Origin: an uncultured Gammaproteobacteria bacterium
GTDB taxonomy: Bacteria > Pseudomonadota > Gammaproteobacteria > UBA9214
NCBI GenBank assembly: GCA_963773065.1
Contig: CAVYZN010000016.1
Span: forward strand, 1 to 64,000
Length of the DNA stretch: 64,000 nucleotides
Direction of reading: 5' to 3'
Below are positions 2,785 through 36,160 of the stretch, in pieces (position 1 is the first letter of the stretch; every line of letters starts with the position of its first letter). Both the position numbers and the translations under genes were made by a program. The notes below the pieces were generated by a model, which was given only the letters and a program-made list of their open reading frames with translations, was not told the origin of the DNA and ran no database searches.

Positions 2785-4061
2785 ATGTCGCTCACCGCCC
2801 AAGTTTGCCTGCTGCTCTCGGAATGGATTTCCTTTCTTCTGCTGGCCGTTCCACCACGCTCCCGTCGGACGTTTGTCGAACTCCTGATCGGTTGCATGCT
2901 CAACCCGGAAGGCTGGGTCACCCGCGCCATCGGGGCCATTCGCCGCGAGGCGCACTGGACCACCTATTACAAGCTGATCGAGCGAGCGCAGGTATCGGTC
3001 GCCGACTTGTCCGTCCGTTTGCTGCAATTGGTGCAAGCGGTGTTCCCGAACGAACTGGTGAATCTGATCATCGACGATACGCTGGTTCCGCGTTGCGCGA
3101 AGTCGGGACCTGGTATCAGTATCAAACACGATCACAGCCACAAGGCCAATCGGCCCACCTTTCTGAACAGCCAGTGCTGGGTCACGCTGGCACTGGTCGT
3201 GCGCGTCAGGCTGGGCTCGGCGCTGACGATACCGATCCGCTCCTGGTTGGTCGAAGAATCGGGCCAACGCGGCAAGCTCTGGGTGGCGAGGCAACTGATC
3301 GATTCGATCAGGGGGCACGTCAAGGAGGTGCGTTTGCTGATCGATGCATGGTTCATGCGCAAGCGCCTGATTCTGCCCTTGCTCGAACAGAAGGTGCGCA
3401 TCATCGGGCAGGTGCGGCGGGATACGGCGCTGTTTCTGCCGCCGGAGTCGGAACCGAAGCGCCGGGGGCCAAAACGCAAATACGGGCAGCGGATCGATGC
3501 GGCCATGCTGGATACGCTGCCCGCGCAGGAGATCGAACTGATGCTGTACGGCAAGATGCAGCGGGTGAGGCTGCGCTCGGTCACCGCCGTGGTGCGATTC
3601 CTGAAGGGGGTGCCGGTGCGGGCGGTGTGGTGCGAGATGCGCCAGGACGACAACACCTGGTCGCGTCCGCGATTGATTCTGGCGACCGAGACAGAACTGT
3701 CGGCTCAAGCCGTGGTGGAAATCTATGCCGAGCGCTGGGGTATCGAGCCGTTGTTTCACAACCTGAAGCGATGGTGGGGAATGACGAACCTGTGGCAGCA
3801 ATCGAAGGCCGCACTGGAACTGTGGATGCAGGTTCGTTCCACGGCGTATGCCCTGGTGCAATTGTCGCCCTGAAGTTGTGGGAATTCTTCCCGTTGATGG
3901 AGATCGCACCTTGGCGCAAGGGAGCGTTGATTACGGCTGGACTTTTCGGCCAGTGGATGCGCATCCAATTTATCGGACTTCGCGTGCGCGATGCCTGCAA
4001 CCCGAAGTCGGGGAATTTTGTGATGCCTTTCCCCGTCCAGGATCAGCGTTTGCAGTGTTGA
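2785..4061 (+). CDS. DDE transposase (IS701/IS4-like), frameshift near 3868
   Basis: Motifs IIDDT, LIDAWF and YAERWGIEPLFHNLK; the C-terminus continues in the 2622..4061 frame; lies between the IS terminal repeats. Confidence 0.9.
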
Positions 4062-5253: not shown

Positions 5254-5316
5254 CGGCGGCGCGGCGGCACGGGGATGCGGTCATCGCGCCCGGCGCGAGG
5301 CGTCGACCGACCTCGC

Positions 5317-6600
5317 GTGAGAGCGCTCTATACAGCCCTGCTCTATCTGCTGGCGCCCCTGGTGCTGCTACGCCTTGCCTGGCGCGGACTGCGTTATCCG
5401 GAGTACCGGCAATGCTGGGCGGAACGCTTCGGCGCCATACATCCCGCCGTGGGAGAACGGGTCATCTGGGTGCACGCCGTGTCCGTGGGCGAGGTTCAGG
5501 CGGCCGAATCCATGATCAGGGCGTTGCTTGACCTGTACCCGGAGTATTCGATCCTGATGACGACAGTTACCCCCACCGGCGCGGCGCATGTCGCGGAACT
5601 GTTTGATGGCGAGGTCGCGCACGTCTATGCCCCGTATGACCTGCCCGATGTGGTGTCGCGTTTTATCGATCGCGTCCGCCCGCGGCTGGCTATCGTCATG
5701 GAAACCGAATTGTGGCCGAACCTCTTCCGGGCCTGCCGCAGGAAGAAAATTCCGCTGTTGCTGGTCAATGCCCGCCTTTCGGATAAATCGCTGGCGGGGT
5801 ACCGGCGTTTCCGCGGGCTGATCGGCAAGACGCTCGAGGCCGTCACGCAGATTGCGGCCCGCACGCCACTCGATGCGGAGCGCTTCGTGTCGCTGGGCGC
5901 CGCTCCCGACAGGATCAGTGTCTCGGGCAACCTGAAATTCGAACTGCACATACCAGCCGGCCTGCATGAAAAGGCGGCCTGCTGCGCCTGGAGTGGGGCG
6001 TGAACCGGCCCGTGTGGATCGCCGGCAGTACCCACGAGGGTGAAGACGAACTGATCCTCGACGTGTTCAGGGAGATTCGCAAGACAATCAGCGACTGCCT
6101 GCTGGTGCTGGTTCCCCGCCATCCGGAGCGATTTGCCGCGAGTCGCCGAGCTGTGCCGCCAGCGCGGCTACCGCGGCGTGCTGCGCAGCGAGCGGCTGGC
6201 CTGCGAGCCGGATACCGCCGTCTTCATCGGCGATTCGATGGGCGAACTGCTGATGTTCTATGCCGCCGCGGACGTGGCCTTCGTGGGCGGCAGCCTGGTC
6301 GATGCCGGCGGGCATAACATGCTGGAGCCGGCCGCCCTGGGTAAACCGGTGGTGACCGGCCCGCATGTGGCCAATTTTTCCGGGGTCTGCCGATTGCTGC
6401 TAAGGCCGGCGCCTGCCGCCAGGTGGTGAATCACGGCGGAGCTGCAGGACACCGTACGGTGATGGCTGCAGGATAGCGGTGAACGCCACCGGGTGGGCGA
6501 CAGGGGCCGGGTAGCGGTCGAGCAGAACCGCGGTGCGCTGGCGACGGTGCTGGGGATGATCGACAATCAATCTGGCCGCGGGAGAAGGGAGAAGTGCTGA
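5317..6600 (+). CDS. waaA: 3-deoxy-D-manno-octulosonic acid (Kdo) transferase, frameshifted
   Basis: IWVHAVSVGEV, METELWPNL, NARLS, GNLKF, WIAGSTHEGE, VPRHPERF, GDSMGEL, GGSLVDAGGHNMLEPAA across three ORF pieces. Confidence 0.92.
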
Positions 6601-7535: not shown

Positions 7536-8862
7536 TCACTGCAGCAGGGCGTTGATCAGTTTCAGATCCTCTTCGCCGAGGGTGCCGGCGGATTGCTCCA
7601 GGCGCAGCATGTCCAGCAGATAGTCATAGCGGGAGCGGGCATGGTCGCGTTTGGCGCTCAGCAGGTCGCGCTGGGTATCGAGCACGTCGACGATGGTGCG
7701 GGTCCCCACGTCGAAACCGGCCTCGGCCGCCTCCAGTGCCTTCTCGTTGGATAGCACCGCCTGTTTCAACGCCGTCACCTTGCTGATGCCGGTCATGACG
7801 CCGCGGTAATTATCGCGTGCCTGCCGTTCGGTGGCAGCGAAGTTGCTGTACCTGGTTCTCCTGGGCCTGGTTGAACTGATACTGCGACTGGCGTGTTTTC
7901 GAGTTGACCAGCCCTCCCTGGTAGAGCGGCAGGTTCATCTCCACCCCGATGGAGCTGTCATTGCGTTCCTGGCTGATGCCGAGGCCGCCGAAGTTGTTGT
8001 TGCGCCAAGCGTAGTCGGCCGTCAGGTCCACGGTTGGATAATGACCGGAACGCTGGATGTCGATCTCCTGGCGGGCGACCTCGGTCGCCTGTCTTGCCGC
8101 GAGCAGCAGGGGGTTCTGGTCGGTCGCTATGCCGACCCATTGCTCCTCCACGGCGGGGTCGGGCGCGGTCAGGGGGATCTCGGGTTGCAGGATTTCAAGC
8201 GTTCCGGGAATGACACCCGTCAGTTCCCGCAATGCCTCCCGGGCATCGGCCAGCAGTTTCTCTGCATTGATTTCGTCGCTGACCGCGATGTCGTAGCGAG
8301 CCTGCGCCTCCAGCACATCCGTGATGGCGGAGAGTCCCACGTCGAAACGCTGTTTGGCCTGGTCCAGGGTGCGTGCGATGGCATCCTTATCCCCCTTGAC
8401 GAACGCCAGATTGTCCTGTGCGCCGAGCACCAGAAAATAACGTGTCGCCACGCGCAGGACCAGATCCTGCTCTGCGGCGGTCAGTTGGGCCTGCGCCTGG
8501 GCGACAACACTGTCGGATTGCTCGAGCTTCAGAAAATTCTCGCGCTGGTAGATGGCCTGGCGCAATTGGGCGCCAAAGGTCTTGTTGGTGGCATAGCTGT
8601 TCTCAGGGTCGCCGGCCGAAGGCGAACGGTTGTGATAACGGTCCCTGGTGACGACGCCAGTCGTGCCGATATTGGGCAACAGCGGCGCGCGGCTTTGCGG
8701 GATAACCTCCGTTGTAGCCTGATAGCTCGCTTCCGCCGCCAACAACTGGGGGTCCGATTGCACGGCCAGTTGATAGACCGAGAGCATGTCATCGGCAAGG
8801 CCCGGCAGCGGCACCGCCAGCCACAGGAGATGCAGCAGAAACCGTTTGCGGGTTAGACGCAT
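7536..8862 (-). CDS. tolC: TolC family outer membrane channel, frameshift near 7835
   Basis: Signal peptide, [58 protein letters not shown]. Confidence 0.92.
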
Positions 8863-8894
8863 GCGTATGTCCTTGATCACCGGGGCGTATATCA

Positions 8895-9557
8895 CTAAAG
8901 GACAAACCGCTGTGGTGCCGCCGCATGCAGGAGCGGCGGCAGCGAGGTTTCGAACAGGCTCTCCTGTGACCAGTTGTGCTCGTCGATCCGGGTGATGAGC
9001 AGCGCTTCCATGATCGGCGGTGTGCCGGTTATGACGAACAGGCGGCCGCCGACTGCCAGATTGTCGTGGAAGTGCCGGTGCAATACCGGCAGTGAACCGG
9101 TCACGGCGATGACATTATAACGCGTAGCGGTGTCGATGCCGTTGGCGGCGTCGCCGTCTTTGAGCGTGACATTGCGGTAACCGTTTGCACCCAGTTTTAC
9201 CGCGGCGGCCTCACGGAATTCCGTAAATATCTCGTAACTGGTAACGTGATTGCCCAGCCTGGAGAGGCAGGCCGTCAGGTAGCCGCTGCCCGTGCCGATT
9301 TCCAGGATCGAATCAGCGGGCTGGATGTCCAGGACCTGCAGCAGGCGCCCTTCCGTCTTGGGCGCCATCATGACCTGTTCGCGGCCCAAGGGGATATTGA
9401 TATCGGCGAAGGCTAGGGAACGGTATTTCCCGGGCACGAAGTCTTCGCGGGGGGTGCTGCTCATCACATCCAGAACTCTTTGGTCGAGCACATCGCAGGG
9501 ACGCACCTGCTGCTCGATCATGTTGAAGCGGGCTTGTTCAATATCTATCTGACTCAT
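8895..9557 (-). CDS. pcm: Protein-L-isoaspartate O-methyltransferase family protein
   Basis: ARFNMIEQQVRP, PREDFVP, ILEIGTGSGY, SLFET; usual neighbour of tolC. Confidence 0.9.
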   Translation of the reverse strand: MSQIDIEQARFNMIEQQVRPCDVLDQRVLDVMSSTPREDFVPGKYRSLAFADINIPLGREQVMMAPKTEGRLLQVLDIQPADSILEIGTGSGYLTACLSRLGNHVTSYEIFTEFREAAAVKLGANGYRNVTLKDGDAANGIDTATRYNVIAVTGSLPVLHRHFHDNLAVGGRLFVITGTPPIMEALLITRIDEHNWSQESLFETSLPPLLHAAAPQRFVL

Positions 9558-9855: not shown

Positions 9856-11739
<1,884 letters not shown>

Positions 11740-11833
11740 ATATCTGTCTGGCATCCACGGACGCGGGTTTGCCGGTACCCGGTTCATCAAGGTAGTGCAC
11801 CAAGGGACAGTTCATTCTTCAAGGATCTTCTCC

Positions 11834-12757
11834 ATGATTGACTTCAAGCAAAACTTCAGCGCGCGCATGCTGCTCAGGATGATCGTACTATCCCTGGTTG
11901 TTCTGGTCGGCATCCTGGCCAATATCGAGTTCTTCAAAAATCTCTATTTCAGCCACCAGCTGACCTCGGCCGGCCTGATCACCAACGGCGGTATCCTGCT
12001 GTTGTTTTCCCTCGGGCTGGTGAAGGTCGTGCTGTCCCTGCTGCGCTACATGCGCGAGGAGTCCGCCCTGGCGAAGTTCGTCACCGCCCTGGGGAGCGAG
12101 AAAAATCCCCTCAAGGGAATCAGTCCGAGAAGCCTCGTGGCGCAGCGCTACGCCATGATCGTGGCGATGAGCGAGAAGAACGCCCGCATCAACCAGAGCG
12201 CGCTGGCCGCCACCCTGGCGGCGGACGAGAGCACGCGCACCAGTTTCGCCAAATACGTAAGCAACATCCTGATCCTGACCGGCGTATTCGGCACCTGCGT
12301 CTCCCTGTCGATCGCCCTGGCGGGTGTCACCGATCTGCTCGATTCGGCCCAGGGCAGCGGGAATATGGGGCTGGTCATGCACGGGATGTCAACGGCGCTG
12401 TCCACCACCATCACGGCCATCGTGTCCTATCTCTTCTTTGGCTACTTCTACCTCAAGCTGAATGATGCCCAGGTGCATGTCCTGAGCAGCCTCGAGGAGG
12501 TGACCACGCTGTACCTGCTGCCGACCTTCGCGCGCGACAAGGACAGCCTGCTGCACGAGGTCGCCGGCCTGGTCCACGGCCTGCGCCAGGCGGCCGAAGC
12601 CATGAGAGCCACCCAGCAGGATTACGCGGCAGCGGGCAACCGCCTGCACGAGGTGTTGACGACACTGGACCTGCGGGTGAACAGCGTGACCGATGATGTC
12701 GGGACGATCAAGAAACTGCTGCGTGATGGATTCCGTCTTCCCGCCAAGGTCGAGTGA
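11834..12757 (+). CDS. MotA/TolQ/ExbB proton-channel family membrane protein
   Basis: About four hydrophobic helices; GVFGT and GMSTALSTT correspond to the ExbB/TolQ GLxGT and GIxxALxTT motifs; C-terminal helical tail. Confidence 0.8.
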   Translation: MIDFKQNFSARMLLRMIVLSLVVLVGILANIEFFKNLYFSHQLTSAGLITNGGILLLFSLGLVKVVLSLLRYMREESALAKFVTALGSEKNPLKGISPRSLVAQRYAMIVAMSEKNARINQSALAATLAADESTRTSFAKYVSNILILTGVFGTCVSLSIALAGVTDLLDSAQGSGNMGLVMHGMSTALSTTITAIVSYLFFGYFYLKLNDAQVHVLSSLEEVTTLYLLPTFARDKDSLLHEVAGLVHGLRQAAEAMRATQQDYAAAGNRLHEVLTTLDLRVNSVTDDVGTIKKLLRDGFRLPAKVE

Positions 12758-12759
12758 CC

Positions 12760-13702
12760 ATGGATGAGGGTTTCATCGATCTTCGCCGGCATACCGAGGC
12801 CGGTATCAGCAGCCTGAATTTCTGGCCCTCGTTCACCGATGTCATGATGGTCGTGGTGGTGATCTTCATGATGGCCAGCTCGGTGCTCATACTGCGCAAT
12901 ATGGACCTGGTGAGGGAACTGCGAGCGACCATCGATGCGCAGCTCCACGCCGAGGAAGCGGCGCGCTCGGCGACACAAACCAGCGCCACCCTGGAGGAGC
13001 AACTCGCACAGACCCAGAGTGAACTCACCCAGTTGCGCATGCGCCTGATGCGCGCCAACGAGATCAACCAGGCTCGCACCGAGGAGTTTACCCGGCAGGA
13101 ACAGCGCCTGCTCGCTCTGGAGGCGGACAAGCAGCAATTGACGTCCGGCCTGCAGCAGTCGCGGCGTGAGGCACAACTGTACCAGGATCAGTTCACCCAG
13201 ACGCAGGCCGAATATGCGCAGTTGAACGATGCCCACGCCACCCTGAAAAAGCGATTGCAGGAGGTACTCGACCAGTTGTCACCAACTCGAAAAGAGCAGC
13301 CAAGATCAGGCCGCCGAACTGGCCCAATTCAGGCAGCAGCGTTCATTGAGCGAACAACAGATGGTAGCGCTGCAGGGTGAGTATGACGAACTCAGGGGCA
13401 AGTACGACAAGCTGATCAAACCGGCGCGTTCCGCCGTTGGCAAACACGTCGTGTCGGTGCGCTATTGGAAAGAGGACGAGGATTACCAGCTCAGGATGAA
13501 GGAGTCGGAGGAGGACGATTACCAGACCGTCACCGTGGATCAGTTGAATGAGCGTCTGGCAAGGCTCAAGGATGAGTATGCCGGCAACCTCTACGTCAAG
13601 GTGATCATCCCGGACAGCAGCGGCCTATCGTACAGCGAGGCGTGGAACTTTATCAACGATCTCCTCAAGAAGTACGACTACTACCACCAGGATGAGCCCT
13701 GA
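12760..13702 (+). CDS. Single-TM partner subunit (MotB/ExbD-like TM with Asp), long coiled coil and ExbD-like C-terminal domain; frameshift near 13280-13345
   Basis: FWPSFTDVMMVVVVIFMM, then a Gln/Glu/Leu heptad-rich stretch; 13346..13702 ends with LYVKVIIPDSSGLSYSEAWNFINDLL; directly follows the previous gene. Confidence 0.7.
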
Positions 13703-14038
13703 GACGCATCGGTACACCGTCCGGCCGGTACGCAAGGCAGCCCGGGATCGACGCCGGGTTATCATCGCTGATGACGACGGGCATCAACGGTCGCCGCGAC
13801 AGCGGCATGGCTCCGCTGCCGGCAACCCGGGGGGATTCGACCGCAGGGCAATGCCAGTGGGGTACGCGGCAGGCACGCACATGACCAGCGCTCGTGAAAA
13901 TTCCCTGGATTGAGAGTGACCGATAGGGTATTTTCCCGTCGCAGAGTAACCGCAGTAACCGTGCGGCGCAAGCCCGCATCCAGAGGATGATTACAACTTG
14001 AAATTACAACGGAATCTCCCATTTATCGCGATATCCCC

Positions 14039-15313
14039 ATGAAGTCCGATAATGTGGTTGATTTTCAGGTAGTCACGGGCCTGGAGGGTCTGAAGTCTCT
14101 GGAAGCCAGCTGGCGCGAACTCACCGGCAGACTGGCCCGAAGATGCTTCTACCATGAGTATGACTGGTTCAGGAGCCGCCTGGAGTGTCAGGTTGACACC
14201 CATGCGCGAGCCGATTTTTGTCCTGGCGAGCCTGCCTGACAAGACACCGGTCGCCATCTTTCCACTGCAGCAAGCAAGGACCAGGAAGGGATGGATGACG
14301 CTTAGCAGCCTGCAGATATTCTGGCCATGTGATATGGATGTCAATGACTTCATCATGGACAACAGTCAAATTGACACCGACCTGATGCATCTTCTGATCA
14401 GAGCATCTAAGGCGGCAAGGCCGGCCACATTTCGATCTTCTGGAACTGCAGAATATACCGGAGGAGAGCGCCATCAGCGATGCCATGAAGTCCCATTCCC
14501 GCCCGTTGACCGTATCTGTACCGCGTCCATTGCAGCAAAACCATCGCCCTTGGCAAGACTTATGATGAAACCACCAGCGCCCTCTCGGGAAAATTCAAAC
14601 GCAACTTGCGAAGACAATTAAACAATCTGGTGAAATCCGGCGAGGTTGAATTCGCATTTTATGATGACGCTGCTGACCTGGAAAAGGCCTACGAAACCTT
14701 CCTCTGTGTCGAGGCAAATAGCTGGAAGGGACCCGATGGCACAGGCACGGCCGTGATATTGAATGAAGAACAAACCACCTTTTATCGCGAACTGGTGTCC
14801 CGATTTGCCAGGACCAACCAATGCCGAATCGATGTGATGACGGTATCCGGGAAACCTGTTGCCGTTCAACTCGGCATCATTTCAGGGAGTACGCTAAATC
14901 TTCTGAAAATTGCCTATGATAAAGCCTATAAAAGATTGGCTCCGGGGGTGTTGCTGCTGAACAAAACCCTGGAAATGTACAGCGGTCACCAGCGGATAAA
15001 ATACATCAGTTTCATAACCGGCGCCCGATGGAATGATGACTGGGCGCCCCTGGTCAACAAAGTTTACACGCATTCGATTTATCAACTAACACCGGCTGGC
15101 TTATATGGCTACACCTTTGAAAGCCTCAAAGTCTTCCTGTGTAAAGTAAAGTGCAGGTATTACTCCGGCAACGGTTTATTAAGCAAGCGTAATGGCGTCA
15201 TGGCCGGTTATGGCGCCAGACAAGCTAAATCGGCGTCACAACCTCACGCATGGGAGGACAAGGTGACGACTCGCATACGGGCTTCGCCAGGCAATGGCGC
15301 CAGTAACGGTTAG
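14039..15313 (+). CDS. GNAT acetyltransferase, CelD/BcsL-like, frameshifted
   Basis: LEASWREL...FYHEYDW, PVAIFPL, VEANSWKG, LKIAYDKAYKRLAPGVLL across three ORF pieces. Confidence 0.75.
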
Positions 15314-15821
15314 GGAGTTGAAGAAAAACACTGGCAACGTGAGCTCATTCCGGATTACCGTTCTGACAAGTTCCGACTTGAAACAGGATTGATGACAGAT
15401 ACGCAAACACCTTTCTCAGATTCAGAGTGAACCCTCCCAGCTCAGCGCCCAGTTACGGGATCAATTCCCCTTGCACGACTTTTTACCGTTGCAGCAGTCC
15501 ACCTCATTGTGTTGCGTTCATGGGGTGCGTCAGATATTCGTTTCGACAGCCGACATCATGCCAGTAATGACGGTGCCCATCATCCTATCAGCGGCAAAAT
15601 CCAACTCGTACTCGTGGTTTTCAACTATCTCATCCGCCGAGTTTTCGGAGTTCATTTCTGATAAAGTTATTCAATATTTGTCGGTTATCATGGGCGGATC
15701 GTCATTCTGTACCGCGTATAATGTGTTTATCCGAAAAGACCATGACATGCACGGGATTATCAGATGCATGTTTGTGGTTACGCATGTACATTGAGACAAT
15801 GTGTATAACAGGAATAACGCT

Positions 15822-16628
15822 ATGAGTTGGAAAGATGACGTCAAAACACGCTTTTCCGTTGCCCAGGATGCAAAAAAATGGGATCAGATGTATGAACAAG
15901 ATACCGAGAAGCTTGATGAACATATCTTTAGGCTGAGACGTGATTTCACGGTGGATTTCATAGTTAACAACTATGATGAACAAGCAAAGCTATGTGACTT
16001 GGGATGCGGAGCCGGACCAGTAATATTTCAAATGCTTAGTAGAGGCTATGATATGGTTGGGCTTGACTACTCCGGGGATATGCTGGGCAACGCGGCTAAA
16101 CGACTCAGTGCTGGGCAGATACGCAATAAACCCTTGATCAATGGCAATTGTGAGCTGTTGCCATTTGGAGATAGCAAATTTGATTGTGTTGTTTGTTTGG
16201 GTGTCATCAGTTATGTGGAGAATTACGAAAATATTATTAAAGAAATCTTCAGGGTTCTCAAACCAGGCGGTACTGTCCTGGTGAGCTTCCGAAATAAATA
16301 TAATTTGATTATGAACGACCCGATCGTCTCGTTAATTTCTCTGGCAAAAAAAATATTGTTTATGGGCGAGAAGAAAAACGGGTTTGAGATCGGGCAATAT
16401 TTGAGTGCGCGCGAAGTGCAAGCATTGATAAAGTCCAAGGGTTTTGACTTTCTTGATTTCAGGGGAATCGGCTTTGGTCCATTCAGCATTAAACACAGAC
16501 GATTGTTTAGTGACAAGACATCCATAAAAATAAGTCAGTACATATCAAGCCTTGCGGATAAATTAAATGCGGAATTTGTTTATAGGCTGGCTTCAGATGT
16601 AAATATCCTGATTTTCAGAAAACCCTGA
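15822..16628 (+). CDS. Class I SAM-dependent methyltransferase
   Basis: LCDLGCGAG, VGLDYS, LPFGDSKFDCVVCLGVISY, EIFRVLKPGG. Confidence 0.9.
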   Translation: MSWKDDVKTRFSVAQDAKKWDQMYEQDTEKLDEHIFRLRRDFTVDFIVNNYDEQAKLCDLGCGAGPVIFQMLSRGYDMVGLDYSGDMLGNAAKRLSAGQIRNKPLINGNCELLPFGDSKFDCVVCLGVISYVENYENIIKEIFRVLKPGGTVLVSFRNKYNLIMNDPIVSLISLAKKILFMGEKKNGFEIGQYLSAREVQALIKSKGFDFLDFRGIGFGPFSIKHRRLFSDKTSIKISQYISSLADKLNAEFVYRLASDVNILIFRKP

Positions 16629-16861
16629 CCCGGGTATATCAGCTAACGTTCCTAACTGGCGGTAAAGGCATGATCGGGAAGCTGCAAAAATGCCTCTCAC
16701 TGCAAATTCATGCTCGATAAACGGAAGTCGGAGCATTCAATTTCCCAGAAACCATCTTACAAGTGTTATGTACGGTCACTTTTGCTGTTCGCCAGGACAA
16801 ATACGCGCTATAAAATATGATTTTACTCAACTTGGCCTGTTCATGGCCCCGGAATCATCAG

Positions 16862-17993
16862 ATGCCAGCAACGACTAAAGACAACGGCTTGCTCGAGGTA
16901 AGAGTCGCCACGGCTGATGAGTTTGAACAGAGCAGGGAAACATGGAATACGCTGGCCGCAGCGATGAAGTATCCCACCATCTTCTGCTCATGGGAGTGGA
17001 TCCACACCTGGTGGAACCATTTCGGAAAAGCACATGAACCCGCGATCCTCTTCATTTACCGCAGAGGCGAGTTGACTGGCATACTGCCGTTATTCATGGA
17101 AAACCGCAGAGAGGTCTGTACACCCGTTCCCGAGGAAGCTGGGATTCTGTGGCAGCACCAAATTGTATCCCGATCATCTCGATATCATCTGTGCTGCAGA
17201 TGACGCCAAGCAGTGCCTGGATGCGGCATTTGGTTTTCTGACGGCTGATTTCAGGTGTTGGGATATTCTGCAATTATGCTTTATTGCCGAAGACAGCAAT
17301 CTTTACTCATGGTTATGGTCAAACCGTGACCGGATCAAGTGGCGGATAAAGGACCGAACCGTTGCCCCCTATCTAAACCTTGCCGGCTCATTCGACGACT
17401 ACATGGGAAGTTTTACAAGTCGCCAGAGATACCCTGTCCAGAGCCGCAGGAAAAAGCTGCTTGAACGCCATGCCATGCGCTATGTCAAATGTGATTTTGG
17501 AGACCTGGCAGAATGTCTGACTACGGTATTTGATCTCCATGCTCAGCGGGCCGTTGCTAAACGGATAGACAGTACCTTTACCGGTGATGAAATCTTCCAG
17601 TTTCATGTCGATCTCCTCAAGGAGATCCGGGACAAAGACTGGGTTTGGATCCGGTTTCTGAAAACCGGGGAAGAGATGATAGCTGCCTTTTATGGTTTCG
17701 TATTCGGCAAGCGTGTGTTCTATTATCAACTGGGGCATGATCCGGAATGGGCTAGTTTTTCTCCAGGCATGGTTATGCTCAATGAGACTATTCAGGAGTC
17801 ATTCGCTGGCAACTACCTGGAATTCAATTTCCTGCAGGGAGAGGAAGAATTCAAATACAAATGGACAAAAGATCAACGGATTCTGTATGACTTCTCTGTA
17901 TATCAGAATAATTTACAGAGTCGCGCACTTTATACCAAAGATATGTTGAAACAAGCGTTAAAGAAGTTGCTAGGACGACACCCTCGGACATAA
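16862..17993 (+). CDS. GNAT acetyltransferase, CelD/BcsL-like, frameshift near 17110-17165
   Basis: IFCSWEWIHTWWNHF, LTGILPL, YPDHLDII, YYQLGHDPEWASFSPGMV, FNFLQGEEEFKYKW. Confidence 0.85.
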
Positions 17994-18044
17994 TCCGCAG
18001 GTTTGCGAGTCTAACCGAATAAATAATCCAAAGTTGTCAGTTAC

Positions 18045-19520
18045 ATGATTAAACATGAGGCCAATGCTGTAAGCAATCCAGCACAGGATGCCCGCCAGCT
18101 TTCCAAGAAAACAGTACAAGCAGCCGGCTGGAACTATTTATCCTTCGGGCTCAGCAAGCTATCCCTCATCGTCACAATCACAATCCTGGCGCGACTGCTG
18201 GGTCCTGGGGAATTCGGAGTCGTCGGCTTTGCGACCCTGGCCATTGCCTACCTGTCCTTTCTGCAGGATCTTGGCCTGGGCCATGCCCTTGTCCAGAGAA
18301 GAACCGATATCGAGGAAGCCTCTGAAACGGTTTTCACATCCAACCTGGCAATCGGGTTTGCACTTACGCTGATTGTATTCATCACCGCTCCCTACATTGC
18401 CGATTTTTTTCGCGAACCGAGAGTCGAGCTGTTGATGCGGGTTCTGGGTCTGTCGTTTTCTATCGAGGCACTCGGATCAACCCACCTGGCTCTGCTTAGG
18501 AAGGAACTCGACTTCCGCCGCAAAATCATCCCGGATCTTGGTCGCGCGTTAATCAAGGGAATAGTCTCCATCAGCCTGGCGTTTCTCGGTTACGGTGTCT
18601 GGTCTCTGGTCATTGGCCAGCTTGCCGGTGCCGTCACCGCGGTTGTTCTGGCCTGGATCACTTGCCCGTGGCGTCCGCATTTCCATATCAACACCGCACT
18701 GCTGCGCAGCATGCTGAGTTTCAGCATGTCACTCATTGGAGTCAACATCATACACGCCATCGCTTCAAATCTTGGTTACACCCTCGTAGGCCGGCTGCTC
18801 GGCGATGCAGCGCTTGGCATCTACACCATGGCCTATCGAATACCGGATCTTGCTATCGACAGCATCTGGACCGTGCTCGCGCAGGTCCTGTTCCCCACCT
18901 ACTCGAATGTGCAGCATGATATGCGGCTACTGGCGAAGGGGTTCCTTGCAACGGTCCGTTACTTGCAGCTCGTCATCATGCCAATTTCACTCATGATGAT
19001 CCTTGTTGCCGATCCACTTGTGCATGCATTGCTCGGCCCCGAATGGATTGAGACTATCCCCATCCTCAGGCTTATTGCAGTTTCTTCCTTGATAATCTCG
19101 ATTGGGAGTAACGTAGGAGACGTGTATAAAGCGATTGGCCGACCAAGTATCCTGTGGAAACTCGGCATATTCAACCTTATGGCACTCACCATATGCCTGG
19201 TTATCGGTGTGAAGTATGGATTGCTGGGAGTAGCCATTGGCCGCATCGTCGCGGCCATCTATGTAATGGCTCTAAGATTGCTTTATGCAACCCGTGTGCT
19301 TGATATCTCATTACTGGATATCTGGCGGCAGATCCGTCCGGCATTCAACGGAGGGATCGTCCTCTGCCTGGTTGCACTGCCCGTGCTTGCTTCAACAGGA
19401 GACATGAATCCATTCATACAATTAATTCTTGTCTGCCTTACTGCCAGCCTGGCTTATTTAGGAGCGTTGTGGTTCCTTGAGAAGGACTCGGTTATTACCG
19501 TACTCGATATGCTGGGCTAA
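18045..19520 (+). CDS. Polysaccharide flippase (Wzx/PST family)
   Basis: ILARLLGPGEFG, DLGLGHALVQ, RKELDFR, GYGVWSLVIGQ; many TM segments over 491 aa. Confidence 0.9.
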   Translation: MIKHEANAVSNPAQDARQLSKKTVQAAGWNYLSFGLSKLSLIVTITILARLLGPGEFGVVGFATLAIAYLSFLQDLGLGHALVQRRTDIEEASETVFTSNLAIGFALTLIVFITAPYIADFFREPRVELLMRVLGLSFSIEALGSTHLALLRKELDFRRKIIPDLGRALIKGIVSISLAFLGYGVWSLVIGQLAGAVTAVVLAWITCPWRPHFHINTALLRSMLSFSMSLIGVNIIHAIASNLGYTLVGRLLGDAALGIYTMAYRIPDLAIDSIWTVLAQVLFPTYSNVQHDMRLLAKGFLATVRYLQLVIMPISLMMILVADPLVHALLGPEWIETIPILRLIAVSSLIISIGSNVGDVYKAIGRPSILWKLGIFNLMALTICLVIGVKYGLLGVAIGRIVAAIYVMALRLLYATRVLDISLLDIWRQIRPAFNGGIVLCLVALPVLASTGDMNPFIQLILVCLTASLAYLGALWFLEKDSVITVLDMLG

Positions 19521-19706
19521 AAAAGTTATTGCCGCGAGATGGAACACCCGATAGGAACTGACATGCAGGTACAGACACCATGACCGGTAATTACGCTGAA
19601 CCAGCGTGCATACTCCATTCAAATTACACGTTGGATAGCGGCGTAGAGAAAAACTCACCTCCTTGCGTGATGATGTATTCAACGCTGAACGAGGCCACAT
19701 GCTGAC

Positions 19707-20981
19707 ATGAAAATCGCCGTTGTTGAGACTTTTGGCACGGGCGGACTCATCCATTTCACATATCAATTGTGTCGAGCCCTCGCCAATAAGGGATGTGAAG
19801 TAAAACTGATTACCAGCGATGACTACGAACTCTCAGCCTTCCCACATAATTTCAGCGTAGACAGCTTCATGCACTTGTGGCCAAGCCACGATCCCGCCTC
19901 TATGCGACAGGTGCCGGGCACCCTGTCACATCGTATATGGCATAAACTGCGCTGGACGGCACGGAGAGCGTTCAGGGCGGCCAAATTAATATGGCAGTGG
20001 CGCCGTCTAACACGACTGTTACTAAGAGAACGCCCTGACATAGTCCAGTTCAGCTTGATTCATTATCCATTCCAGGCGTATTTCCTTTCCCGATTACAGC
20101 GCAGTGGTATCCTGTTGACGCAAATCTGCCATGAATATGAGCAGCGCGACACCAAACCCGGCTGGATCAACACACTGAACTCGAACCTTTCCCAGAAAAT
20201 CTACCGCAGCTTCTCCGCCATCTTCTTTCTGGCGGAAAAGACCAGGCAGGATTTCCACCGGTTCTCTGCCATACCTACAGAGCACACCTTCATCATTCCG
20301 CACGGAGACCAGTCAATGTTTCTTGATGACCGGGAGCGACGGCTGGACATGCGGGCACATTACGGGCTTTTGAAAGAAGACAAGGTGATTCTTTTTTTTG
20401 GTGTCATCCGCCCGAGTAAAGGCATTCCCGATCTGATTGAAGCATTTGCATTGTTGCCAAAAGATAGAAACGCCAAACTGCTGATCGTTGGCTACCCTAC
20501 CAAACACGCTGATATGGGTGAACTGCAGGACGACATAAACCGGCTTCACCTATCGGGTTCCGTCATCATCGATCCGCGCTATATAGCAATGGAAGAAGTA
20601 GGACCGTTGATGGAAGCAGCCACCCTGGTCGTATTCCCTTACCGCAATGCCACCCAAAGTGGCGCGTTACATCTGGCGTATTCTTTTGGCCGCCCGGTTG
20701 TTGCCACAAGGGTTGGCGGCCTGGCGGAGGATGTCAAGGATGGCCAAACCGGATATCTGGTTCCCCCACAGTCACCAGCGGACCTGGCCGCGGCCATTGA
20801 GCGTCTTCTTACGGATCCTGACCGTCTCGCACGGATGGGTATAGAGGCCCGAAAACTCTCCCAGACCCAGCATTCATGGGATGCCGTAGCCGAGCGTATA
20901 TTGAGCGTATATAACAAACTGTTACTTGATTCCGCTATCCCCACGGCACATACTTCAGCAACGCATACCTCGGGGTATTAA
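19707..20981 (+). CDS. Glycosyltransferase family 4
   Basis: ILFFGVIRPSKGIPDLIEAF, VVFPYRNATQSGALHLAYSFGRPVVATRVGGL. Confidence 0.92.
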   Translation: MKIAVVETFGTGGLIHFTYQLCRALANKGCEVKLITSDDYELSAFPHNFSVDSFMHLWPSHDPASMRQVPGTLSHRIWHKLRWTARRAFRAAKLIWQWRRLTRLLLRERPDIVQFSLIHYPFQAYFLSRLQRSGILLTQICHEYEQRDTKPGWINTLNSNLSQKIYRSFSAIFFLAEKTRQDFHRFSAIPTEHTFIIPHGDQSMFLDDRERRLDMRAHYGLLKEDKVILFFGVIRPSKGIPDLIEAFALLPKDRNAKLLIVGYPTKHADMGELQDDINRLHLSGSVIIDPRYIAMEEVGPLMEAATLVVFPYRNATQSGALHLAYSFGRPVVATRVGGLAEDVKDGQTGYLVPPQSPADLAAAIERLLTDPDRLARMGIEARKLSQTQHSWDAVAERILSVYNKLLLDSAIPTAHTSATHTSGY

Positions 20982-21489
20982 ACGTCTTTACATCATTAGC
21001 GGCTCATTCCTGCAGGGTGTGCGGTACTTGAAAATACCCGCAAGTCACGGTAAACATACCGCACTTCATCATACATTCGATCTCCTTCTGGACCGCATTT
21101 CTAAATGCGCCGTGAAAAGGCACGTCTCTCAGTGGATGTAATTCCCACCCGACAACTATCGCTCCAGCCAGTAGCAATCGGAGCGACCGGAGCCTGCTGG
21201 TGTGGAGTGTCATTATTGTAACCTGGTTGCAGGAGACCATAACAGTGCAGTGAACGCTAGGCATACCCTTGGTCCGGGCAGATGGCGACTATTATCGTAG
21301 ATGCCGCCGATTTCGAAGCGACCCGCCAGCGGCGTAGTATGCCTACGGTAGGGGGCGCGGCGCAGCAGATAGCGCAATGTGTCGGCGACTTTGGCCAATT
21401 CGACGTCCACCAAACGTCAGGCAGAATGGGCCTGTTTTCGTGTCGCGTCGAACATCATCAGCAGTTCCTTGCACATGAGTGGGAAGAGA

Positions 21490-21690
21490 ATCTCGATGTG
21501 GTCATGCGCCAGCCACATCGCGCCGGGGAGAAGCTGTTCGTGAACTATTCCGGGCAAACGGTTGAGGTGGTGGACCGGGCTAGCGGTGAGGTAAAGGCGG
21601 CACAGATTTTCGTCACCTTGCTGGTGGCTCCAACTATACGTACGCCGAGGCCACCTGGAGCCAGCAGCTGCCGGACTGGATCGGCCACGC
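21490..21690 (+). pseudogene. IS21-family transposase (IstA) fragment
   Basis: MRQPHRAGEKLFVNYSGQ..VVDRASGEV..AQIFV, then in a shifted frame SNYTYAEATWSQQLPDWI; no ends or istB seen. Confidence 0.85.
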
Positions 21691-22038
21691 AAATTGGCCG
21701 CCTGACATCATCACGGCACTGCCCACCGCCACACTGTATATGTTTCTCTACGGCAAGGAGCAAACTGTCCGGCTGCGTTCGGTTGTAGCCTGGCATCATT
21801 TCCTCACGCCACGTCGGTCTGTACGGTTTGGTGCGAGTGCTTCGATCCGGAGAAGAACACCAGTGTCCAAACCCCGTTTGCTGCTGCCACCGAGACCAAA
21901 CTGTCCGTCACAATCAGCGTGCGCCTCTATGACCGTTGCTGGGGCATCGAACCTGTTATTCCCTTAAATTCGCCTTCCCCGAACAGCACGGTAATCCCGA
22001 TTACCCTTGTAGCCATTTAGTCAGCGTCTTCCTGTTCA

Positions 22039-22218
22039 TCAATCAATGCTGGAGTTGTAAAACACATCCAGAGGAATAAATTCTACGATGATATTATTCA
22101 AACGCCTGTCTGGAATTCTGCGACGATCCACTGACTTTATCTGTCCCTTAGTGCCCGAGACGAGTAACGGAGAGGAATTATTTATGTCGCGTCTTTCCTT
22201 ATGCCTTCGTTCTCTCAT
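22039..22218 (-). CDS. 59-aa Arg-rich microprotein (absent from the ORF track), paralogue of 22544..22732
   Basis: Manual translation: MRERRHKERRDINNSSPLLVSGTKGQIKSVDRRRIPDRRLNNIIVEFIPLDVFYNSSID. Confidence 0.6.
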   Translation of the reverse strand: MRERRHKERRDINNSSPLLVSGTKGQIKSVDRRRIPDRRLNNIIVEFIPLDVFYNSSID

Positions 22219-22543
22219 TTTTAATGCGCATCCACACCTCGATACGCTCCTCCTTAATCTTGTTGTGCATTAACCGATTAGCTGTATACACATCATAGTC
22301 CTGAAATAATGGAATTTTCTTGTTTTTATTTGATCCAGATCAATTGGAATCTATATTTGACTCCCCTGGAAACCGCCTGAACGAATGTAACGGTTGGGGA
22401 GCAGGTTACATTATGCCGTTGTTTGTATCGAAGCCTTTGCAATAGATAAATCATCCTTCGATTTCCGCTAAGCAGTTGGATTCTTTGAGTGTTGCATAAA
22501 AAAGCGATCATGTGATCGCCCGTTGCTAAATATCCTTATTCAA

Positions 22544-22732
22544 TCAGGTTAGTTTGTAGAATGTCAACCAGGGCATCTCAGACAACAGTAACTGCCTTTC
22601 CTCGACCTCCAAATTGCTCAGGCGGCGATCCCTCGTTTTGCGTCGTTCCGACGTAACAATATCATGCATACTGTCTTCCAGCGGGAACGTGATAAGGACA
22701 TGTGAGTGTCGCCTTTCTTTAGTGTTTCTCAT
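22544..22732 (-). CDS. 62-aa Arg-rich microprotein with ERR/DRR motifs
   Basis: MRNTKERRH...ERRKTRDRRLSNLEVEE; GGAGGT Shine-Dalgarno just upstream of the ATG. Confidence 0.7.
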   Translation of the reverse strand: MRNTKERRHSHVLITFPLEDSMHDIVTSERRKTRDRRLSNLEVEERQLLLSEMPWLTFYKLT

Positions 22733-22874
22733 GATCTACCTCCCCAAGGTAGTGAGATGTCGGACTTACCTTGAGCAGGTTAACGGCCCATTAGTTCAAT
22801 CCTTAACTCAAAATATAGCAAGAGAATCAGGAAAGTTCTGCCGGGACAACACGATTTTCTGGTTATGTCTTTCT

Positions 22875-22905
22875 TTGCTTCGTCACTTTGTTCCTCGCAA
22901 TGACG
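22875..22905 (-). repeat. Single REP/RPE-like palindromic unit
   Basis: Reverse strand reads CGTCATTGCGAGGAACAAAGTGACGAAGCAA, resembling the widespread GTCATTGCGAG..GACGAAGCAA intergenic repeat (recognised from memory). Confidence 0.55.
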
Positions 22906-22951
22906 ACACATCAGAAATTCCCTAAGATCATCACGAGTCATGCCGCGCGGT

Positions 22952-23048
22952 CCGGGATGGGCTTGTCGCAGCCGTGTGCCGCCAGAACGGCGGCACGACG
23001 AGCCTACCGGGAGGTATTCACGGCGTGCTGCGGCAAGCCCATTCCCGG
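22952..23048. repeat. REP/MITE-like structured element
   Basis: CCGGGATGGGCTTGTCGCAGC pairs with GCTGCGGCAAGCCCATTCCCGG; inner hairpin GTGCCGCC..GGCGGCAC. Confidence 0.65.
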
Positions 23049-34548: not shown

Positions 34549-34791
34549 ATGAGTGCAACGACTGAACTGCTCACCCAAATTATTACCCTTGGCAGGCAAA
34601 AGGGACTCAAACAGCAGGATATCGCCCGGCGCGCCAGGCTTCACCCGGAGTCGCTCTCGCGCGCCAAGAAATCCGGTGATATGCATGTTTCCAGTCTCGA
34701 TGAACTGGCCCGCGTGGTCGGATTGAAACTGGCCCTGGTGTCCGATCAGCCCGTGATCGAGAAGATCGATAAAGGGACCCTGTTTGAATGA
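34549..34791 (+). CDS. HipB-like XRE helix-turn-helix antitoxin
   Basis: GLKQQDIARRARLHPESLSR..LDELARVVGLKL; ATGA overlap with the HipA gene. Confidence 0.82.
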   Translation: MSATTELLTQIITLGRQKGLKQQDIARRARLHPESLSRAKKSGDMHVSSLDELARVVGLKLALVSDQPVIEKIDKGTLFE

Positions 34792-36160
34792 GCCGCGATC
34801 GTGAGGCGGTCGTCTGGACCAGTCTGGCCACACCTCCGGTACGTATGGGGCGGCTGTATCTGACGGACACGGATTGCCGCTTTTCCTATGACCCTGCCTA
34901 TCTGCAAACCGGGTTGCCTGGTTTGGGCCTGGTTTATGCGCCGGATATCTACCGGGAAAACACCATCATTCGAAAGCGGACGGCGTTCTTCGACTTCCTG
35001 CCGCCAATCCAGTCGCTGATACCACCGCAGGGTGAAAAGAATTTCCAGCGGCGTCTCATTCTGAGTTATCTCGCTAATACCGGGATTGTCCCCGCCCGGG
35101 GGATCGATGAGGACTGGGAGATTCTCAAGGTGTCGGGGCATGGCGCCATCGGCCACCTGGACGTTTTTGAATCGGACGAAAAGGCGCTGGCGTGGTACGC
35201 CGCTTCTGCCGATTCCACCTTGTTCGAAATTACCGCCGACCTGGGTTTTTCGCTGAAGGCATTTCTTACCTGGTTTGATCAGGATGCGGATGCCTGGCTG
35301 CACGTCATCGGCCCGACACCGAGCATCGGCGGGGCCATACCTAAACTGCTGGTGTCGATCCCGGAATCCGGTTGGGACGGTCGCATCGGCTTGCCGACCC
35401 GCATCGGTGTGCGCGGGGTAACCGATGTCGTACTTAAGCTTGAACAATCCAGCGCCTACCCGGGGATCATCGAGCTGGAAGCGCTGGCCCTCGCTATCCA
35501 CCGGGAAGCCGGGTTTGATGTGCCCAGGCACTGGATCGCGGAGATCAACGGCATCCCGGCACTGGCGGTCGAGCGCTTCGACCGGGATGGCACGCACACC
35601 CCGGTATTCACCGAGTCCCTGTATTCGATGCTCGCCTCGGGTGACGCGTCCGTCACCAACAACTACAGCTACAGCTATGACAAAATTGGGAGGGCATTCG
35701 ACCGGTCGCCCATCACACTGGTCGCCGACCGTGTCGCCGCGAAGCGGCATCTCCTGCAACGACTCGTTCTGGCGCTCCTGACAGGCAACGGCGACCTGCA
35801 TCTGGAGAACCTGTCGATTATCGATCGCGGTGAAGGGCCGCGTTTCTCCCCGTCTACGATCCCACCCCGATGCGTGCCTACTCGATCCACAATATGCTGT
35901 CCGTGATGCCCTTTGGCGACTACGGCGAGTTCACCGGCACACGCGGTGAACCCGTTGGCTTTACCGAGGCCGTGCTTAATTTCACGCGCAATCTGGGCAT
36001 CGGCAGGGCCGTGCTGCGCGATATCATCACCGCCTCACTTGAGTGTACGCGTGATTATCACCAGCGCGTCGCGGCGCTAAGGTCGCTGCCAGATGCCAAC
36101 AAGCAGAACCTGATCGCAATCACCCGGAAAATGGCATCGATGCTGGAAACTGTTGTCTAG
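34788..36160 (+). CDS. hipA: HipA-family kinase toxin, frameshift near 35850
   Basis: N-terminal MGRL..CRFSYDPAY, SIGGAIPKLLV, LAVERFDR, GNGDLHLENLS, FSP(V)YD. Confidence 0.88.

Follow-up and report, generated by a model that had tools for sequence, protein, structure and literature searches.

A conserved two-gene pair predicted to form an ion-driven membrane motor with a heptad-phased coiled-coil stalk

The window analysed in this work is a stretch of 64,000 nucleotides (positions 1 to 64,000 of the forward strand of contig CAVYZN010000016.1, assembly GCA_963773065.1) from an uncultured gammaproteobacterium of the UBA9214 lineage. Two adjacent genes on its forward strand, here called A and B and together covering 11834-13702, are the subject of the analysis. 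We propose, with a probability of roughly 60%, that their products make up a membrane motor driven by protons or other ions, of the same kind as ExbB-ExbD, TolQ-TolR and MotA-MotB, in which B acts as both axle and connector. A is a divergent MotA/ExbB/TolQ-type subunit, and B combines an aspartate-bearing transmembrane helix with a long coiled coil and a C-terminal domain that matches no known family or solved fold. This architecture of B is new within the known kind of 5:2 motors. The initial annotation, made from the sequence, had spoken of an uncharacterised motor class. No description of the A-B family was found in the full texts searched, and the pair is better regarded as a variant of the known motor kind than as a class of its own.

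The two genes occur together. A scan using one genome per species gave at least 460 stretches encoding a relative, and all results on loci given below (numbered with the prefix L) come from the best 80 of these 460. In 80 of 80 loci the motif of B begins at most 120 codons after the end of A. The pair is complete by a strict motif test in 67 loci and complete with a variant linker in 9, while the remaining 4 are cut by a contig end. The distance from the stop of A to the start of B lies between -4 and +5 nucleotides in 52 of the 77 loci measured, the window having +2. Some loci seemed at first to lack A, which was an artefact of overlap removal and disappeared in the direct test; an apparent A-B fusion in L067 (an open reading frame, ORF, of 638 amino acids) is an alternative open frame, the TGA of A overlapping the ATG of B. 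Homologues of A number at least 2264 at E<=1e-3 among 8000 candidates scored, and the best 120 of them are nearly all 306-308 amino acids long. Their database names read 'hypothetical', 'MotA/TolQ/ExbB proton channel family' or 'ExbB/TolQ', and B proteins carry generic coiled-coil labels, 'chromosome segregation ATPase', 'EnvC' or 'TolA-binding protein'. No source assigns the pair to a Ton, Tol or Zorya system. It is a widespread two-gene pair without assigned function.

Gene A (11834-12757; ATG at 11834, TGA at 12755-12757) encodes 307 amino acids. The Pfam family MotA_ExbB (PF01618) matches residues 114-218 with an E-value of 1.3e-5 and 25.3 bits, the cut-off being 22.9, and the relative of A in L070 passes with a similarly small margin (23.1 bits). 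No match to A was found in NCBIfam. The sequence signal for membership is thin and the fold match is clearer. An AlphaFold2 model of A was built with 38 sequences (mean predicted local distance difference test score, pLDDT, 77) and compared by Foldseek with the Protein Data Bank (PDB). Ranks 1-10 are all ExbB chains with probability 1.00; the best match is 6ye4_A (E 2.7e-3) and the best target-normalised template modelling score (TM-score), 0.67, belongs to 9ddo_A. PomA, MotA, ZorA and TolQ follow after ExbB (probabilities of about 0.9-1.0 overall). Pfam score and fold together thus place A in the MotA/ExbB/TolQ superfamily, in agreement with the initial annotation.

A had also been described as having four transmembrane helices. 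A hydropathy scan finds three strongly hydrophobic segments (residues 7-39, 45-73 and 142-169) and would not by itself give a fourth. A putative fourth helix, at about residues 178-205, is rich in Ser and Thr and stays below the hydropathy threshold; in the AlphaFold2 model it is part of helix 175-232. The predicted pore-lining helices, residues 141-205 (12254-12448), hold two motifs that are invariant in the 38 sequences, GVFGT with T154 (codon 12293-12295) and STALSTTIT with T192 (codon 12407-12409). When A is aligned with E. coli TolQ by hhalign (E 0.018, probability 2.5%), GVFGT with T154 stands opposite GLFGT with T145, and STALSTT with T192 opposite AEALIAT with T178. The C-terminal region, residues 206-307 (12449-12754), is predicted to be cytoplasmic and helical (model helices 175-232 and 236-299), and no Pfam family matches it. 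It ends in G299, F300, R301 and L302, all four invariant in the 38 sequences, followed by a mostly conserved Pro (12728-12742). Relative to the ExbB-like core, A adds an N-terminal helix and a long C-terminal helix, 236-299, that ends in GFRL.

Gene B runs from 12754 to 13702 on the same strand, with its stop at 13700-13702 once a +1 shift discussed below is corrected; the 5' part lies in frame 1 (12754-13287) according to the ORF list and a three-frame translation. Translation may start at GTG 12754, which overlaps the stop of A, or at ATG 12760. The sole hydrophobic stretch of B is at residues 19-51 and has WPSFTD at its start, as the initial annotation had noted (transmembrane helix 12823-12900, motif 12823-12840, Asp codon 12838-12840). 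All 72 B ORFs from the related loci contain the pattern W-P-[SA]-F-T-D (70 read WPSFTD and 2 WPAFTD), and conservation of the Asp had been named as a point on which the annotation could fail. In hhalign the Asp falls opposite TolR D23 (E 0.0072, probability 5.4%). The ExbD/TolR models of NCBIfam give 12-14 bits on the window's B (E 0.03-0.05 for ExbD), cover the helix only and have cut-offs of 127-216. The same protein has no match to PF02472 (ExbD), and no Pfam family scores above its cut-off. B is thus ExbD/TolR-like in its helix, and its scores lie below the curated cut-offs for membership. Neither the MotB plug (PF13677) nor an OmpA-like domain is among the Pfam matches at E<=1 of the two pieces of B. 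The NCBIfam model NF006543 (PRK09039.1-2, 'peptidoglycan-binding protein') aligns its positions 7-173 with B residues 14-180 (E 5e-5), covering the helix and coiled-coil portion; the score is 23 bits against a cut-off of 305, and the second half of the 350-position model has no counterpart in B. At the predicted cytoplasmic end, residues 1-10 of B (12760-12789) include a conserved F-[VI]-D-L-R, in which F5 and L8 are invariant and D7 and R9 nearly so. We know of no counterpart of this motif in ExbD, TolR or MotB.

The helix is followed by a coiled-coil stalk (12901-13399 by heptad analysis, the frameshift of this assembly falling within it). We defined stalk length as the distance from the Asp to the invariant Pro of the linker KYxKLxxPxR, which could be taken from 197 of 299 distinct sequences; the other 102 lack one of the two motifs and many are fragments. 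The distance ranges from 124 to 422 residues and equals 5 modulo 7 in 166 of the 197 sequences. Each length was also counted once to blunt the effect of shared ancestry, whereupon 23 of 46 lengths fall in this class where 6.6 are expected (Bonferroni-corrected p 7e-8). Another 11 of the 46 are 2 modulo 7, the shift that a stutter in a coiled coil brings about. Among the moduli tested, 3 to 12, none besides 7 is enriched. Mean hydrophobicity in the three commonest length classes has a period of exactly 3.5 over about 145-165 residues, which bears out the coiled coil of more than 100 residues proposed earlier. The same two positions, 2 and 6 modulo 7 from the Asp, form a hydrophobic seam in almost all blocks of 28 residues between the membrane exit and the linker, and no position of the stalk proper shows Pro or Gly in over 30% of the sequences. 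With one register and no such break, the stalk is read as a single continuous heptad coiled coil without a hairpin, phase-locked to the Asp helix at one end and to the end domain at the other. The unbroken a/d seam and the heptad-quantised length point to a rigid stalk. If the register is extended into the membrane, the Asp would take position 'b', facing away from the B-B seam and towards the expected ring of A.

Physical length was estimated at an assumed 0.1485 nm per residue after subtraction of 30 residues for membrane helix and linker, which gives 21-24 nm for the commonest classes and 41-58 nm for rare members. Measured from the inner membrane, the peptidoglycan is some 10 nm away and the outer membrane some 20-25 nm. 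A stalk of the usual length would put the end domain at or just beneath the outer membrane, in line with the earlier suggestion that it could span the periplasm. The longest B proteins among the loci (355-418 amino acids) are those of L058, L063, L064, L065, L066 and L074, whose contigs are labelled as lucinid or Solemya clam symbionts, one Sedimenticola and two as Gammaproteobacteria only. Their extra length consists of insertions, such as 42 and 28 residues, that are whole heptads.

The linker and the C-terminal alpha/beta domain occupy 13400-13702, as placed with a 53-sequence alignment, and end in YDYY before the stop. The last approximately 95 residues are modelled by AlphaFold2 with a core pLDDT of 85-93 and, after the coiled coil, the order beta-beta-alpha-beta-alpha, so that the small alpha/beta domain of the initial annotation is retained. 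Three comparisons do not back its designation there as an ExbD-like tip. Foldseek returned 0 matches for the end domain at E<=0.001 in the PDB, with no ExbD, TolR or TolA in the top 50. A profile of the end domain gave 9 matches among PDB sequences (E 0.18-1.8), with no protein of an envelope motor among the 9, and hhalign against E. coli TolR gave a probability of 0.2%. PF02472 matches 6 of 53 members below threshold, with 18.7 bits at best against 25.4; in the sole case inspected, that of L044, the sub-threshold match has the right register for the periplasmic domain. The order of strands and helices is compatible with the ExbD/TolR fold. A relationship to ExbD is accordingly possible but unproven. 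At E<=10, 18 of the 53 members also match Pfam SH2 weakly, and two (L075 with 21.2 and L037 with 21.9 bits) slightly exceed the 21-bit cut-off; these matches span the linker and first strands and were regarded as chance.

Searched against 1.84 billion cluster representatives, the end-domain profile recovers 382 clusters (defined by 50% identity) at E<=1e-3, and 350 of them even at E<=1e-10. The domain constitutes a discrete family, and the number is far short of what a match to ExbD/TolR would add. In the best 150 of the 382 clusters it is always C-terminal, in proteins of 128-540 amino acids. In the ESM Atlas, full-length B matched its own unnamed clusters only and the end domain alone matched nothing. 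The end domain is, by these searches, novel.

Taken as a motor, the pair could work as follows. The A subunits would form a ring around two transmembrane helices of B, at a predicted stoichiometry of 5:2, and each B Asp would be presented to a ring of A threonines. Passage of ions through the Asp/Thr sites would turn the A ring relative to the B pair. The two B helices would continue outward as one uninterrupted parallel coiled coil whose end domain presumably binds a partner in the envelope, and the shaft would rotate, or twist and shorten, and so pull on that partner near the peptidoglycan or outer membrane, a conversion of twist into pull being reasonable on physical grounds. B would in this way unite the roles that are split between TolR and TolA or between ExbD and TonB, and a separate transducer would not be needed. 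In its most specific form, in which the B dimer is a self-contained trans-periplasmic drive shaft, axle and heptad-phased rigid coil in one, driving an outer-envelope partner through the new end domain, the proposal is tentative and falls somewhat short of even odds.

The present family bears on an open question, namely how work done by 5:2 motors at the inner membrane reaches the outer envelope. The Ton and Tol connectors are separate, flexible proteins, and the conversion of rotation into force is a matter of debate. Here, by contrast, axle and connector would be one rigid coiled coil, and the whole-heptad changes in length, together with one seam that starts at the Asp-bearing helix, indicate that phase and stiffness matter. 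If the drive shaft is real, it would be a fourth way of energising the outer membrane, beside TonB, TolA and GldM, with a stalk whose length is tuned in whole heptads to the envelope of each lineage and is longest in clam symbionts and Sedimenticola.

Several known systems offer precedents for parts of this design. With ExbB-ExbD the pair shares the best structural matches of A, a B helix in which the Asp is followed by a hydrophobic run, and adjacent genes with start and stop usually within a few bases; B differs in having about 165 residues of coiled coil and in an end domain unrecognisable as ExbD, A in its additional N-terminal helix and longer cytoplasmic C-terminus, and the locus in having no TonB gene nearby. 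To TolQ-TolR-TolA it is linked by the low-probability hhalign correspondences given above, and as a working analogy B may be seen as TolR and the long helical, periplasm-crossing TolA in one chain, although no separate TolA was seen beside the A-B pair. GldL-GldM of type IX secretion and gliding is the closest functional analogy, GldM being portrayed in PMC9389320 as a rigid, dimeric B-type shaft that is considered to cross the periplasm. The Foldseek matches listed for A and for the end-domain model contain neither GldL nor GldM chains, and the periplasmic part of GldM consists of globular domains in place of a coiled coil. MotA-MotB and PomA-PomB resemble A in four-helix topology and differ in the absence from B of the MotB plug and OmpA-like domain, and in their flagellar genes, none of which lie near the pair. 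The helix pair of MotB is itself treated as a coiled coil in PMC10659934. Among predicted TolQ-like motors, the Asp-bearing partner is described, in PMC12204202, as carrying its own vWA effector domain and a transpore helix. There, as proposed here, the partner bears the periplasmic effector part and neither TonB nor TolA is needed; those motors have a vWA partner, often in heterologous pairs, whereas the present family has a single coiled-coil protein with another end domain. Many structurally diverse non-flagellar 'GIT' motors of unknown function are recorded in PMC12505986, and the word 'coiled' is absent from the text of both PMC12505986 and PMC12204202.

Gene content around the pair was examined in the window and in related loci. 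Among 40 window ORFs scanned, from 82 to 42298, no TonB, TolA, flagellar, OmpA-like or Zorya C, D or E domain was found, which upholds the earlier remark that no such gene is adjacent. The 31 neighbour proteins from four locus types likewise contain no Ton, Tol-Pal or Zorya partner domain, and tolB, pal and cpoB were not seen near the pair in the window or in the neighbourhoods of the loci. A search by regular expression for ExbD/TolR genes that could be used for profile comparison found none in the loci or window. The four arrangements are as follows: in the clade of the window, thiC, A and B are followed on the opposite strand by unknown genes and a H+-pyrophosphatase; in the second, HemN and a 2OG-Fe oxygenase lie upstream, and a secreted Cys-rich protein, an MlaC-like protein, a glutaredoxin-like protein and TerB downstream; in the third, an MlaC-like protein is directly upstream and radC, coaBC and dut come after the pair; in the fourth, ffh is upstream and rimM and trmD follow. 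These are housekeeping contexts and not defence islands. By this chromosomal context the pair probably has an envelope housekeeping task, and a role in defence, which had been left open, is unlikely. A weak hint at function, and the sole one, is the MlaC-like gene: of 73 listed relatives of the locus (74 rows including the window), 16 have it next to the pair, in two of the arrangements.

As a rival explanation, B could be an anchored stator, tethered to peptidoglycan or outer membrane like MotB, the output then being the rotating A ring acting through its C-terminal region and GFRLP. Such an arrangement would give a purpose to the roughly 100 conserved cytoplasmic residues of A that belong to no known family and include the invariant G299-L302; it also fits the MotA-like four-helix topology of A and the presence of PomA and MotA among its Foldseek matches, and in our reading of the 53-sequence alignment the end domain has an aromatic-rich conserved surface that may be a wall-binding site. 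No cytoplasmic partner gene is linked to the pair, however, and the OmpA-like and MotB_plug matches expected by comparison with MotB are missing. A tether would not obviously need a heptad-exact length over 124-422 residues, though any coiled coil fixed at both ends might. We therefore prefer the moving shaft, because no cytoplasmic partner is linked and the exact phase is conserved along the shaft, and regard the anchored stator as unlikely. Rather less probable still is that the pair is an ordinary Ton/Tol paralogue energising a TonB- or TolA-like transducer encoded elsewhere. The ExbB chains at the head of the structural matches of A and the ExbD/TolR-like helix of B would suit a paralogue, and tonB is often unlinked from exbBD according to a passage of PMC12204202. 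Yet B has 290-540 amino acids against about 140 for ExbD and TolR, its end domain resembles neither by profile or fold, no TonB or TolA domain was seen in the window ORFs or in the four loci scanned, and none of the 382 clusters recovered with the end-domain profile comes from the very large ExbD/TolR family.

The defence reading just mentioned can be put more exactly: the pair would be an anti-phage sensor, Zorya-like or of another sort, with a MotAB-type core. PADLOC reports a partial match of A to ZorA1 (E 2.6e-4, 17.9 bits) and one of B to ZorB1 (E 1.4e-5, 22.6 bits), both weak and the latter confined to the helix; ZorA structures are among the Foldseek matches of A, and in the window a low-GC island adjoins the pair. 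The likeness to ZorA-ZorB is at superfamily level only. Zorya has a cytoplasmic ZorA tail, a peptidoglycan-binding ZorB and a requirement for ZorC and ZorD or for ZorE, of which none was seen here in the scanned window ORFs or neighbours, and A with its 307 amino acids and weak partial ZorA matches does not qualify as ZorA. In addition, B carries the long extension, presumably outside the cell, and Zorya has its extension on the A-type subunit, in the interior. Genes such as thiC, ffh, rimM, hemN and coaBC flank the pair in several conserved arrangements, and the island is not conserved beside it. We consider an anti-phage sensor very improbable.

Returning to the proposed motor with B as axle and connector, a number of observations weigh against it. 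For A the Pfam support is marginal, 2.7e-3 is the best E-value that Foldseek gives, the query-normalised TM-scores are 0.33-0.51, and a 12-sequence profile of A run against PDB sequences found no ExbB, TolQ, MotA or ZorA at E<=1. Given the low hhalign probabilities, the Thr and Asp equivalences with TolQ and TolR can be called plausible and nothing firmer. A periplasmic stalk presupposes an N-in orientation of B, which is predicted by analogy with ExbD, TolR and MotB. In some relatives the stalk reaches about 390 residues, or about 58 nm if straight, far more than any periplasm known to us, so that a rule by which length equals periplasm width fails for some members. The survey of neighbourhoods found the pair itself constant in 80 of 80 loci, and no third gene common to most loci and no linked gene across all lineages; the end domain has no known partner. 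Finally, B is broken in the window as it stands.

The break is a single extra base at about 13280-13287 (forward strand), which causes a +1 frameshift and splits B into two ORFs, the first frame being readable to about 13282; it had been noticed in the initial annotation and is placed here by the reading frames, by DNA alignment and by an intact relative. Alignment with the DNA of L001, L002 and L004 shows one extra base in the window. The intact relative, P0355, is a B of 313 amino acids on another contig, with an end domain 98% identical to that of the window and an A that is 97% identical. Its residues 1-178 agree with the first piece of B at 172 of 178 positions, and its residues 175-313 with the second piece at 136 of 139, and the single shift is the only damage to B. 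Three further genes within 8 kb are split: thiC is spread over three frames (9980-11739), and waaA (5275-6003 and 6000-6317) and a tolC-like gene for outer-membrane efflux (7536-7796 and 7810-8895) are each in two pieces. Including B, so short a stretch has four broken genes, core biosynthetic ones among them, and this pattern, together with the intact P0355, makes a sequencing or assembly error the most likely cause of the break in B. The pair could instead be a decaying pseudogene with a true frameshift, a reading that takes the given sequence at face value and to which the position of the shift outside any long homopolymer lends some support; with B otherwise undamaged and its pieces 97-98% identical to the intact relative, and with the splits in thiC, waaA and the tolC-like gene fitting error better than simultaneous loss of core genes, we hold it to be quite improbable.

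The low-GC stretch right after B extends over about 14000-23000 (GC 0.46-0.55, compared with about 0.60 around it) and encodes two Acetyltransf_6 (GNAT/FemAB-type) acyltransferases, a methyltransferase, a Wzx-type flippase and a GT4 glycosyltransferase. The pair does abut a glycan island in the window, as had been reported. Synteny with the relatives stops after B, however, and the genes that follow B in the relatives are absent from the window. The adjacency is therefore local and uninformative on function. A scan for promoters and terminators over 11600-14200 gave nothing above shuffled controls.

Some further observations concern the loci. The MlaC-like gene is downstream, after the secreted Cys-rich protein (which belongs to no known family), in L039, L041, L046, L047, L051, L053, L059, L062, L070, L071, L076 and L077, and upstream of the pair in L058, L064, L065 and L066. 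A cluster that from its gene sizes had been guessed to be of the TonB2 type (TtpB/TtpC-ExbB-ExbD-TonB) was ruled out by its Pfam content, which comprises DsbD_2, a sigma-54 activator, DUF2244, HemN and the 2OG-Fe oxygenase as well as the MlaC-like, glutaredoxin-like and TerB proteins. Neighbour clusters 13, 24 and 3 match no Pfam family at E<=0.01 and are without homologues in the window. In L006, L015, L021, L024, L025, L033, L034 and L035 a predicted lipoprotein of about 170-200 amino acids, with a signal peptide ending in Cys, is encoded downstream of B, on the opposite strand in 7 of the 8 loci; the two members scanned are without a Pfam match.

The carriers of the pair are mostly uncultured Gammaproteobacteria, with labels that include Thiotrichaceae, Ectothiorhodospiraceae, Sedimenticola and bivalve symbionts. 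The contigs of L024 and L027 are labelled 'Halobacteria archaeon', although the locus is of proteobacterial type, and P0012 is labelled Candidatus Promineifilaceae, a lineage of Chloroflexota. These three are probably mis-binned metagenome contigs. Elsewhere in the window, an ORF for a DDE transposase (DDE_5 / DDE_Tnp_1) at 2785-3873 lies between an hldE-like kinase/cytidylyltransferase gene and an epimerase gene, and an ORF at 34788-35906 has a HipA-like C-terminal kinase domain and may be the toxin half of a toxin-antitoxin pair.

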